The notes beneath the pieces were generated by a model that had not been told where the DNA came from, did not search any database, and was given only the letters and a program-made list of their open reading frames with translations. A DNA stretch of 64,000 nucleotides from a virus. Both the position numbers and the translations under genes were made by a program. The DNA lies in the IMG/VR virus record IMGVR_UViG_3300037423_001503, one strand, 5' to 3'. Positions 3,314 through 63,929 of this stretch are shown piece after piece (position 1 is the first letter of the stretch; every line of letters begins with the position of its first letter).

Positions 3314-4105
3314 ATGGCAACAAAGTCGCAGGAACTAGAGGTAATCGAGGAGTCCGCGGAGCTAGACGTGATCTCCGATGATGAAGCGGCACTCATCGCG
3401 GCCAACCAGGCCGACGTCGATGCCTCTGAGTTCGTCATCCCGATCGTCAAGCTCGCGCAGCCGCTGACCGACGAGGTCACCTCTGGTAACGCCAAGGCCG
3501 GCGAGTTCATCCTCGGCCTTACCGGTGAGTCGTTCGCAGCGCCGGTCGAGTTCGTCGTCGCCGGCAAGGGCAAGGGCCGGTTCAAGCCGGGCCGAGACGG
3601 TGAGCGCACGCTCGTCGCCTACGACACCCCAACCGTGCCTTGGAAGGATGACCCCTTCTACGGACAGCCGTTCACTGAGCACCCCGACGCCGAGGAGAAG
3701 TTCAAGGCTCGCGTCGACGCCGGTGAGATCGAGTGGGGTCACGGCCCGACGATCCAGACGACGTTCAACTACACCGGCTACATCGTCGGCTCTGACGTAC
3801 CTGTGCGTCTCAGCCTCCGCCGCACCTCTGCTCCGGCAGCGCGTAAGTGGAACACGCTCCTCGACGCGGTCCTCCGTGGCCGTTACTGGGATCAGGTCTT
3901 CACGGTCGGCTCTGAGCAGCAGAAGAACAACAAGGGCGCGTACTACGTCGTGACGGTTCAGCCGTCGCGCAAGACCTCGCCCGAGGAGAAGAAGGCCGCC
4001 ATTCAGTTGGCGACCGCGCTGCGCAACCAGTCCGTCACCACGGTTGGCGAGACCGACGACGCACCTACGTCCGCGCCGGACGCTAACGGCGGCATCGAGC
4101 TTTAG
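3314..4105 (+). CDS. putative single-stranded DNA-binding protein
   Basis: IPIVKLAQ motif, aromatic-rich core, acidic C-terminal tail, position before primase. Confidence 0.55.
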   Translation: MATKSQELEVIEESAELDVISDDEAALIAANQADVDASEFVIPIVKLAQPLTDEVTSGNAKAGEFILGLTGESFAAPVEFVVAGKGKGRFKPGRDGERTLVAYDTPTVPWKDDPFYGQPFTEHPDAEEKFKARVDAGEIEWGHGPTIQTTFNYTGYIVGSDVPVRLSLRRTSAPAARKWNTLLDAVLRGRYWDQVFTVGSEQQKNNKGAYYVVTVQPSRKTSPEEKKAAIQLATALRNQSVTTVGETDDAPTSAPDANGGIEL

Positions 4106-62792: not shown

Positions 62793-62863
62793 CGGGGCAC
62801 CTGGGATTCGAACCCAGAAGGCGCGGTTTTGGAGACCGGCCGGCACAACCTACGCTGTACCCC
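62793..62863 (-). tRNA. tRNA-Trp(CCA), atypical D arm
   Basis: CGGT-CTCCAAA-ACCG; canonical T arm. Confidence 0.7.
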
Positions 62864-62867
62864 ATGT

Positions 62868-62949
62868 ACTGGCTGCTTACTTCCGGATCGTGGTCCGGTG
62901 TCGGCACTTAGCGGAATCTCCACGTCCACGACAGGAGAACACGGCCAGT
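62868..62949 (-). ncRNA. 82-nt non-tRNA structured RNA in tRNA array
   Basis: ACTGGC/GCCAGT end pairing and TCGTGG/CCACGA inner helix; no T loop. Confidence 0.4.
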
Positions 62950-62952
62950 GAG

Positions 62953-63027
62953 GGTGAACGACGGGACTCGAACCCGCAACCTTCCGGATCACAACCGGAG
63001 ACTCTGACCAATTGAGCTACGTTCACC
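62953..63027 (-). tRNA. tRNA-His(GTG) with encoded G-1
   Basis: TCCGG-TTGTGAT-CCGGA; G-1:C73. Confidence 0.9.
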
Positions 63028-63032
63028 GAGAG

Positions 63033-63105
63033 CGCCCTTGGCTGGACTCGAACCAGCGACCCCCAGCTTCGCAAGCTGGTGCTCTATCCACTGAGCTACA
63101 AGGAC
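63033..63105 (-). tRNA. tRNA-Arg(GCG)
   Basis: CCAGC-TTGCGAA-GCTGG. Confidence 0.88.
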
Positions 63106-63111
63106 TTGGAG

Positions 63112-63185
63112 CGGAAGTGACGGGACTCGAACCCGCGACCTCTGCCGTGACAGGGCAGCGCTCTAACCAACTGAGCTACACCTCC
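63112..63185 (-). tRNA. tRNA-Asp(GTC)
   Basis: CTGCC-CTGTCAC-GGCAG. Confidence 0.92.
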
Positions 63186-63197
63186 AAGTTACTTCAG

Positions 63198-63271
63198 CGT
63201 CCCTGGCAGGACTTGAACCCGCGACCTCCTGGTTCGAAGCCAGGCGCTCTATCCAACTGAGCTACAGAGAC
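63198..63271 (-). tRNA. tRNA-Arg(TCG)
   Basis: CCTGG-CTTCGAA-CCAGG. Confidence 0.9.
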
Positions 63272-63275
63272 TAAG

Positions 63276-63360
63276 TGCGCGAGGTGGGATTCGAACCCAC
63301 ACGACCCTAAGGCCAACCGGGTTTGAGCCGGTCGTGTCTACCAATTCCAACCACTCACGC
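63276..63360 (-). tRNA. tRNA-Leu(CAA)
   Basis: ACCGG-CTCAAAC-CCGGT; long variable arm. Confidence 0.9.
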
Positions 63361-63371
63361 GAAGACTGCTA

Positions 63372-63455
63372 TGACATCGGAGGGAGTCGAACCCTCATGA
63401 CCTCTCGGCCGGCAGGTTCTAAACCTGCTGCGTATACCAATTCCACCACGATGCC
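63372..63455 (-). tRNA. tRNA-Leu(TAG)
   Basis: GCAGG-TTTAGAA-CCTGC; long variable arm. Confidence 0.9.
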
Positions 63456-63459
63456 GGAG

Positions 63460-63543
63460 TGCGCTGAACAGGACTCGAACCTGCACGGGTTTTACCCCAC
63501 AAGGCTCTCAACCTTGCGTGTCTACCAATTCCACCACCAACGC
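63460..63543 (-). tRNA. tRNA-Leu(GAG)
   Basis: CAAGG-TTGAGAG-CCTTG; long variable arm. Confidence 0.9.
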
Positions 63544-63587
63544 GAAATCCCATCAGAGGCCTAGGCGTCGATGGGAAGTATTACCTT

Positions 63588-63685
63588 GACCGCCTCTCGC
63601 GCAACCCCGCCGATGGCGACGCGCTACGAGACATTGTCTGCACTGCCATGCAGCATTAGCGCCCGATGGCAGTCGGGCGGCGATC
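63588..63685 (-). ncRNA. 98-nt four-way-junction RNA with complementary (kissing) loops
   Basis: Closing GATCGCC/GGCGGTC; hairpin loops CTGCCA and TGGCAG. Confidence 0.6.
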
Positions 63686-63693
63686 TCAGTGAG

Positions 63694-63767
63694 TCAGGGC
63701 AGCGGGATTTGAACCCGCGGACACCCGCTTCCAAGGCGGGGATTGAACCAGACCCAACTCTACCCTG
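63694..63767 (-). tRNA. tRNA-Pro(TGG), atypical (G8)
   Basis: CCCGC-CTTGGAA-GCGGG. Confidence 0.8.
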
Positions 63768-63843
63768 TGGTGGTCGATGCAGGTCTCGAACCTGCGGCCT
63801 CATGCGTGTCGAGCATGCGCTCTACCAACTGAGCTAATCGACC
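63768..63843 (-). tRNA. tRNA-Val(GAC), C33, CCA encoded
   Basis: CATGC-TCGACAC-GCATG. Confidence 0.88.
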
Positions 63844-63856
63844 AGGTACTACTAAG

Positions 63857-63929
63857 CTCCGCCGCCAGGATTTGAACCCGGAACTCTCGGGTAACAACCG
63901 AGCACGTTCTCCGTTTACGCCACAGCGGA
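63857..63929 (-). tRNA. tRNA-Asn(GTT)
   Basis: CTCGG-TTGTTAC-CCGAG. Confidence 0.85.

Follow-up and report, generated by a model that had tools for sequence, protein, structure and literature searches.

Covariation supports an uncatalogued four-way-junction RNA with two complementary hexaloops in the tRNA arrays of large soil phages

The tRNA islands of phages prove to hold RNAs that build large RNA-only assemblies, and the examples known so far are themselves large and complex. The ROOL, GOLLD, and manA RNAs are phage-encoded, are often found beside tRNA islands, and carry loops that pair with the loops of the next molecule to give closed oligomers: ROOL and GOLLD form nanocages held by kissing loops (10.1101/2024.12.08.627333), and manA RNAs of <200 nt form pentamers and a 60-mer via intermolecular kissing of their own loops (10.64898/2026.07.01.735769). 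Pairing between copies of one RNA is also found in a cobalamin riboswitch, which homodimerizes via a 5-bp L5-L13 kissing-loop interaction, and in the phi29 pRNA, in which two mutually complementary loops on one RNA pair hand in hand between molecules to form rings (PMC12990946). Phage T4 has non-tRNA genes inside its tRNA cluster, rnaC and rnaD (species 1 and 2 small stable RNAs, NC_000866 70908-71171), which are annotated as stable RNAs with no function given and are presumably cut out together with the tRNAs. The element described here belongs with these known non-tRNA structured RNAs of phage tRNA islands and fits no catalogued family.

The stretch of DNA that was analyzed (64,000 nucleotides in full, hereafter the window) is part of the genome of an uncultivated phage of ~140.5 kb and 61% G+C. 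Its head-tail gene set is ordinary (major head protein, portal, protease, and large terminase) and is accompanied by genes for ribonucleotide reductase and thymidylate synthase. None of the isolated phages is close to it, the head protein being <30% identical to any of theirs. The phage has at least 35 tRNA genes, arranged in three arrays on the - strand. Most spacers in the arrays are <15 nt, but a gap of 149 nt separates tRNA-Pro(UGG) (63694-63767, - strand) from tRNA-Leu(GAG) (63459-63543, - strand), and the element lies within this gap (63588-63685, - strand), with tRNA-Pro(UGG) as its upstream and tRNA-Leu(GAG) as its downstream flank in the transcript. An ORF on the + strand (63571-63837) was disregarded, as it overlaps tRNA genes.

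The genome record of the phage (G000) is a linear contig broken inside the first array: it ends at window position 62915 and restarts at 63883, and window 62916-63882, including the element, is missing from it. The contigs of the relatives G001 and G002 also break inside the array that holds the element, and contigs from public runs are merely 65-300 nt long at window 62916-63882. These assemblies are fragmented by tRNA arrays, and elements inside arrays are in consequence under-sampled. Ten soil or rhizosphere DNA runs contain most of the stretch, and no RNA run is listed among those that contain it. Of four soil or rhizosphere DNA runs whose contigs were compared with the window, three have contigs that span the element and match it at every position, so that they add no new variants, while the fourth (X11) has none over the element.

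Two further features of this array deserve mention in their own right. A tRNA-Trp(CCA)-like gene at window 62793-62863 (- strand), missed by ARAGORN and by Rfam at threshold, reaches 25.6 bits against a threshold of 29, its D arm being aberrant and its anticodon stem weak; the relative G003 has a normal tRNA-Trp at this place. We dropped the idea that the element substitutes for a missing tRNA-Trp, given the presence of this Trp(CCA)-like tRNA. Between it and tRNA-His there is a second tRNA-sized slot that holds no tRNA (window 62868-62949, - strand); it is dissimilar to the element, and the matching slot in G003 is just 48 nt.

The sequence of the 98-nt element, its minimum-energy fold, its covariance-model matches (in the window, G001, and G003), and its pair counts describe a four-way-junction RNA on the - strand. 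It starts after an 8-nt spacer (63686-63693; also 8 nt in G003) that runs from the discriminator of tRNA-Pro(UGG) to a 7-bp closing helix, P1, whose 5′ strand (63679-63685) pairs with 63588-63594, one of the pairs being a U.G, and whose 3′ strand has an unpaired A directly after it in each of the three lineages that have the element. Within P1 lie a hairpin P2 (63661-63678), with a 6-bp stem and the hexaloop CUGCCA (L2, 63667-63672); a hairpin P3 (63638-63653), with a 5-bp stem and the hexaloop UGGCAG (L3, 63643-63648); and a variable third arm, P4 (63595-63631), which is 37 nt here, 19 nt in G001, and 25 nt in G003. The A-rich linker J2/3 (63654-63660) has 7 nt, with 4 and 7 nt in the relatives and no conservation of sequence, and the linker J3/4 (63632-63637) has 6 nt, with 5 and 6 nt in the relatives; all of these segments are on the - strand. 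The four-way junction is the minimum-energy fold of the 98 nt (-49.3 kcal/mol, z -2.7), and the opposite strand takes a different and less stable fold.

An earlier reading of the same DNA, made from its letters without database searches (the sequence-only reading), had written out the - strand of 63588-63685 and its segments exactly as we find them, and had noted that the two hexaloops are exact reverse complements, which the - strand confirms. Its observation that both linkers end in AATG is true in the window, but this ending is not conserved in the homologues. The separate hairpin that it reported at 63548-63576 (- strand), between the element and tRNA-Leu(GAG), is present and probably falls outside the core element: the hairpin is near-identical in G001 (two changes near its top) and has no U run after it, and it is absent from G003, where ~10 nt lie between the element and the next tRNA.

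Relatives of the phage were reached via the portal protein. G001 (IMGVR_UViG_3300037313_001223), with a portal 89% identical, has a copy of the element of 76 nt (L013:1697-1772), and G003 (IMGVR_UViG_3300013102_000350), with a portal 65% identical, has one of 84 nt (L003:231-314). A covariance model made from G001 alone recovers the copies in the window (43 bits) and in G003 (22 bits) and nothing else that is credible. An architecture descriptor that specifies a closing 7-bp helix and two hairpins with complementary hexaloops, run over 5.4 Mb of DNA on both strands, returned the element, its two homologues, and one false match, fewer than would make the architecture a matter of chance.

By aligning the three lineages under the guidance of the model, we find that 97% of the pair cells are paired and that 17 of the 25 stem pairs have changed on both sides. 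When the partners are slid by 1-3 columns as a control, only 38-45% of the cells are paired and 2-4 pairs show both-side changes; an alignment fitted to the structure favors the fold, but the contrast with the slid controls is still large. P1 is 100% paired in the three lineages, with two pairs changed on both sides and the U.G at pair 3 kept in all. Changes on both sides are found at four of six stem pairs in P2, at all five in P3, and at six of the seven basal pairs in P4, whose length and apical loop are not conserved. The lengths of P2 and P3 stay matched (6 and 4-5 bp) while P4 spans 19-37 nt, and each of the three sequences, when folded alone, has the four-way junction as its minimum-energy fold.

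A fold that is conserved and covaries across three lineages indicates a real, selected RNA structure, and the G.U pairs in its helices, together with the different and weaker folds of the opposite strand, indicate an RNA that is read in the tRNA direction. The four-way junction of the sequence-only reading is thus supported both by energy and by compensatory changes in two relatives. We conclude from these comparisons that the element is a real, conserved, and uncatalogued small RNA (76-98 nt) of a rare lineage of large uncultivated soil phages, with a four-way-junction fold that is established by covariation. The same comparisons bear on the suggestion that the two hexamers act at the level of DNA, as an inverted repeat (CTGCCA ... 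TGGCAG) to which a protein dimer would bind. They do form an invariant inverted repeat on DNA, but their spacing varies (18, 15, and 17 bp), and the stems around them covary with G.U pairs that are workable on one strand only; as far as sequence allows, the suggestion is refuted, and we attach next to no credence to it.

The known lineages with the element number only three: the window phage, G001, and G003. Against isolated phages, blastn gave chance matches only. An exact 25-mer of the element was found in no viral contig; two loop-based patterns returned unrelated DNA among the viral-contig matches listed, and two more specific patterns returned only G001 and G003 from the viral contigs. 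A 30-mer of the downstream hairpin and tRNA-Leu matched only G001, and locus searches that started from the portal, in viral and metagenome contigs, added no lineage with the element. Our models R1 and R2, run over the whole records of the relatives, gave only noise (the matches in L151, L146, and L142 fall in coding sequence or have no such loops). A pattern scan of bacterial genomes hit at least 120 loci, with no true copy among the matches listed. Four loci (L076, L215, L420, and L439) were set aside as false positives.

The element is missing from the array (L142:3380-5700) of a further relative, G005, whose record is 81.7 kb long and whose portal is 49% identical. This array has many gaps of 80-260 nt that contain tRNA-like sequences uncalled by ARAGORN; one example (3866-3945) combines an acceptor-like helix and a CUUCCAA loop with unusual D and T arms.

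No Rfam family reaches its gathering threshold on 63588-63685, in a search that the sequence-only reading had itself proposed. There is no Rfam match on this segment to phi29 pRNA, SRP RNA, C4 antisense RNA, or YrlA, no match to the ROOL and GOLLD models on the element, and none over it to the manA model (RF01745). Model R1, with filters off, reaches at most 7.1 bits on the T4 cluster that contains rnaC and rnaD, and the folds differ. The only match of note in a sensitive search of 401 bases was to the ffh sRNA model (RF01793), at 25.9 bits in the window (gathering threshold 35), with a match that spans only the 5′ strand of P1 and P2; the score falls to 20.6 bits in G001, and there is no match in G003. 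Since this match is confined to one hairpin and fades in the homologues, we treated it as chance. The tRNA model (RF00005, at least 29 bits) has no match overlapping 63588-63685, even at E values up to 10 in a 401-base search, and ARAGORN calls no tRNA on the element. With neither a T loop nor a match to the tRNA model nor an Rfam match at threshold, the description of the element as an unnamed structured non-tRNA RNA within a tRNA array holds.

These results also weigh on the possibility that the element is a much-altered descendant of a tRNA, kept as a look-alike that tRNA-handling enzymes or host tRNA nucleases would recognize, as a decoy or as a substrate, by its 7-bp end helix and unpaired A. 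The element does occupy a tRNA slot and has four arms, and in all three lineages an unpaired A follows the 7-bp closing helix in the manner of a discriminator; the G001 copy measures 76 nt, with 5 bp in its second arm and a 'variable' linker of 5-6 nt. The failure to match the tRNA model even at permissive E values argues against such a descent, as do further details of the fold. P2 has 6 bp and, like P3, a loop of six letters; the GG of a D loop, the T loop, and the two letters between P1 and P2 are all absent; and the third arm has 7-9 bp with unconserved loops of 3-7 nt, which extends the stack on the end helix to 14-16 bp as opposed to 12. We consider tRNA descent improbable.

We found no promoter-like or terminator-like site in or adjoining the element, and we infer that it is co-transcribed with the array. 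It would be made as part of a long tRNA precursor and freed as the neighboring tRNAs are cut out, probably by host 3′ processing on the tRNA-Pro side and by RNase P cleavage at the next tRNA on the other side. The element could instead be only a cis-acting part of this precursor, such as a folding insulator, a processing signal, or a transcription element, from which no free RNA arises. Its fixed place, with a start 8 nt past the tRNA-Pro(UGG) discriminator in all three lineages, would suit such a part. However, an insulator or spacer has no need of two invariant complementary hexaloops, and the absence of promoter-like and terminator-like sites in or beside the element also counts against a cis-acting part, which we regard as very improbable.

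All 12 letters of the two hexaloops are identical in the three lineages, while the stem letters agree at only 22/36, 9/34, and 12/34 positions between lineages (26%-61%). L2 and L3 can form six Watson-Crick pairs out of six in every lineage, and the L2-L3 duplex alone is worth -8.4 kcal/mol. The element therefore presents two exposed, conserved, Watson-Crick-complementary loops on one RNA, as self-assembling kissing-loop RNAs require. Loss of this complementarity in homologues would have refuted the sequence-only reading, but it is kept in both homologues; the compensatory changes are all in the stems, the loops being invariant.

Since none of the six L2-L3 pairs varies, among three lineages only, covariation neither proves nor disproves that the loops pair. 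The loops are evidently under strong sequence constraint. With the stems diverged and the loops fixed, self-pairing is unlikely to be the sole constraint, as covarying loop changes would then be expected, and this suggests a sequence-specific partner outside the element. Elsewhere in the genome, hairpins with the same hexaloops occur at about the number expected by chance. One of these, a 5-bp hairpin (CTGCCA on the + strand, TGGCAG on the - strand), lies at G000:C1:75661, ~960 nt before the window start; ~0.5 hairpins of this kind are expected by chance in the genome. The hexamer UGGCAG is also found within the D loops of both tRNA-Gln genes.

If outside partners hold the loops constant, their mutual complementarity may be secondary: L3 would kiss the anticodon loop of tRNA-Gly(GCC) and L2 that of tRNA-Ala(GGC), or a protein would read the two loops, and the RNA would serve to hold these tRNAs, to sense them, or to act as a decoy for them, or would do so for an enzyme that works on them. 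This would account for loops that are wholly invariant among stems of near-random identity. L2 contains U-GCC-A and L3 contains U-GGC-A, the anticodon-loop cores of tRNA-Gly(GCC) and tRNA-Ala(GGC), whose anticodons are complementary to each other. The loop of the phage's own tRNA-Gly(GCC) (G000:C1:11455-11527) can pair with L3 over six positions (five Watson-Crick pairs and one G.U), and that of its tRNA-Ala(GGC) (G000:C1:11689-11762) can pair with L2 over five; GGC and GCC are also the top Gly and Ala codons in the large genes of the phage. However, the pattern Y-U-NNN-R is expected in about one in 16 hexamers by chance, and since L2 and L3 are complementary, the match of the second loop follows automatically from that of the first. 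The loops of the element have six letters, not seven, and the same pentamers make up both strands of the anticodon stem in tRNA-Asp(GUC) (the tRNA at window 63111-63185), so such matches arise easily. The match to tRNA anticodon loops carries small statistical weight, and we keep it as a rival and not as a finding, rating control of the loops by outside partners as rather unlikely. Were the loops to bind tRNA anticodon loops after all, the element would represent a new kind of phage tRNA-binding RNA.

The best-supported mechanism, which we infer, is a pairing of the two loops, above all one that joins separate molecules. The freed RNA would fold into its 7-bp closing helix, the two hairpins P2 and P3 of matched length, and the variable fourth arm, and the invariant hexaloops L2 and L3 would then pair loop to loop. 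This pairing would most likely take place between molecules, L2 with L3′ and L3 with L2′, so that two kisses would close a dimer or a small ring would form. When hexaloops are fully paired, as in TAR-TAR*, their two stems stack end to end. A J2/3 linker of 4-7 nt is too short for stems placed end to end, which makes a full 6-bp kiss within one molecule unlikely, although this steric argument draws on the known geometry of kissing complexes in general. A reciprocal dimer needs P2 and P3 merely to lie side by side, and this fits their matched and conserved lengths. On the strength of the short linkers and of this side-by-side dimer geometry, and also by analogy with manA, ROOL, and GOLLD, we favor pairing in trans. 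One feature counts against the loop-loop pairing model: in isolated P3 one further U.G pair can close, which would reduce L3 to a 4-nt loop.

The main structural rival to pairing in trans is a partial kiss in cis, in which 2-4 pairs between L2 and L3 on side-by-side arms would lock a compact monomer into a rigid shape recognized by a protein or enzyme, much as in L2/L3 of the purine riboswitches or in the SRP Alu domain. Multi-way junctions with kissing arms set side by side are known, and the element offers what such a design uses: P2 and P3 adjoin in the junction, their matched lengths are conserved, and their loops are complementary. However, a partial kiss does not explain why all six positions are both complementary and invariant, and the J2/3 linker is down to 4 nt in G001. 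We judge a compact monomer to be unlikely.

The best explanation overall is in our view an uncatalogued small noncoding RNA that is released from the tRNA precursor, pairs in trans through its hexaloops, and probably shares its role with the self-assembling manA, ROOL, and GOLLD RNAs found in phage tRNA islands; we hold this combined reading with somewhat less than even confidence. A more specific form of it remains tentative, and we would put it well below an even chance: that the element is a minimal natural self-assembling RNA, whose copies would be linked into closed dimers or rings by just one pair of complementary hexaloops, hand in hand. It would thereby parallel manA, ROOL, and GOLLD on a small scale and come from the same operon as a manA-like RNA, with loops that might also dock onto the anticodon loops of tRNA-Gly(GCC) and tRNA-Ala(GGC).

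The manA-like RNA in question lies at L286:398-662 (- strand; G000:C1:398-662), ~280-545 nt past the window end and ~195 nt upstream of the first tRNA of the array, with which it shares the strand. Its score of 40.2 bits (E = 2e-8) is below the gathering score of 55.2, and a counterpart is found in G001 (L013:836-1102, 35.9 bits). It is probably a divergent RNA of the manA family that heads the tRNA operon. If the element does self-associate, the co-occurrence of the two RNAs in one operon would provide a route to asking what such RNAs do in infection.

Compared with the systems described above, the element shares its setting with T4 rnaC and rnaD, which are likewise non-tRNA genes inside a phage tRNA cluster and on the tRNA strand. 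These are longer (139 and 119 nt) and have no complementary pair of hexaloops, and rnaC keeps a canonical T arm, which the element lacks. The likeness to the SRP Alu domain drawn by the sequence-only reading consists in two neighboring hairpins closed by a helix, with loops that pair. In the Alu domain the loops make only partial contact, through a few pairs inside a single molecule, and there are conserved motifs. Those motifs are absent from the element. For the Alu domain, as for phi29 pRNA, an analogy of paired loops stands, but membership does not. The phi29 pRNA has a three-way junction and 4-nt loop pairs and is found in phi29-like podoviruses, on the packaging motor. In contrast, the element has a four-way junction and 6-nt loops, and it sits in the tRNA array of a large phage whose large terminase is ordinary. 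TAR-TAR* hexaloops and pairs of tRNAs with complementary anticodons also join hairpins through short, G+C-rich loop-loop helices; compared with the latter, the element has loops of six letters instead of seven and carries both on one molecule, and this likeness comes from hexamer matching.

The comparison with manA, ROOL, and GOLLD is the one on which the proposed role leans. Those RNAs range from ~190 to >800 nt and have many helices and pseudoknots, whereas the element has 76-98 nt and a single loop pair. With one loop pair, short arms, and clean covariation, it would, if it does self-associate, provide a very small and tractable natural model beside the large assemblies of manA, ROOL, and GOLLD.
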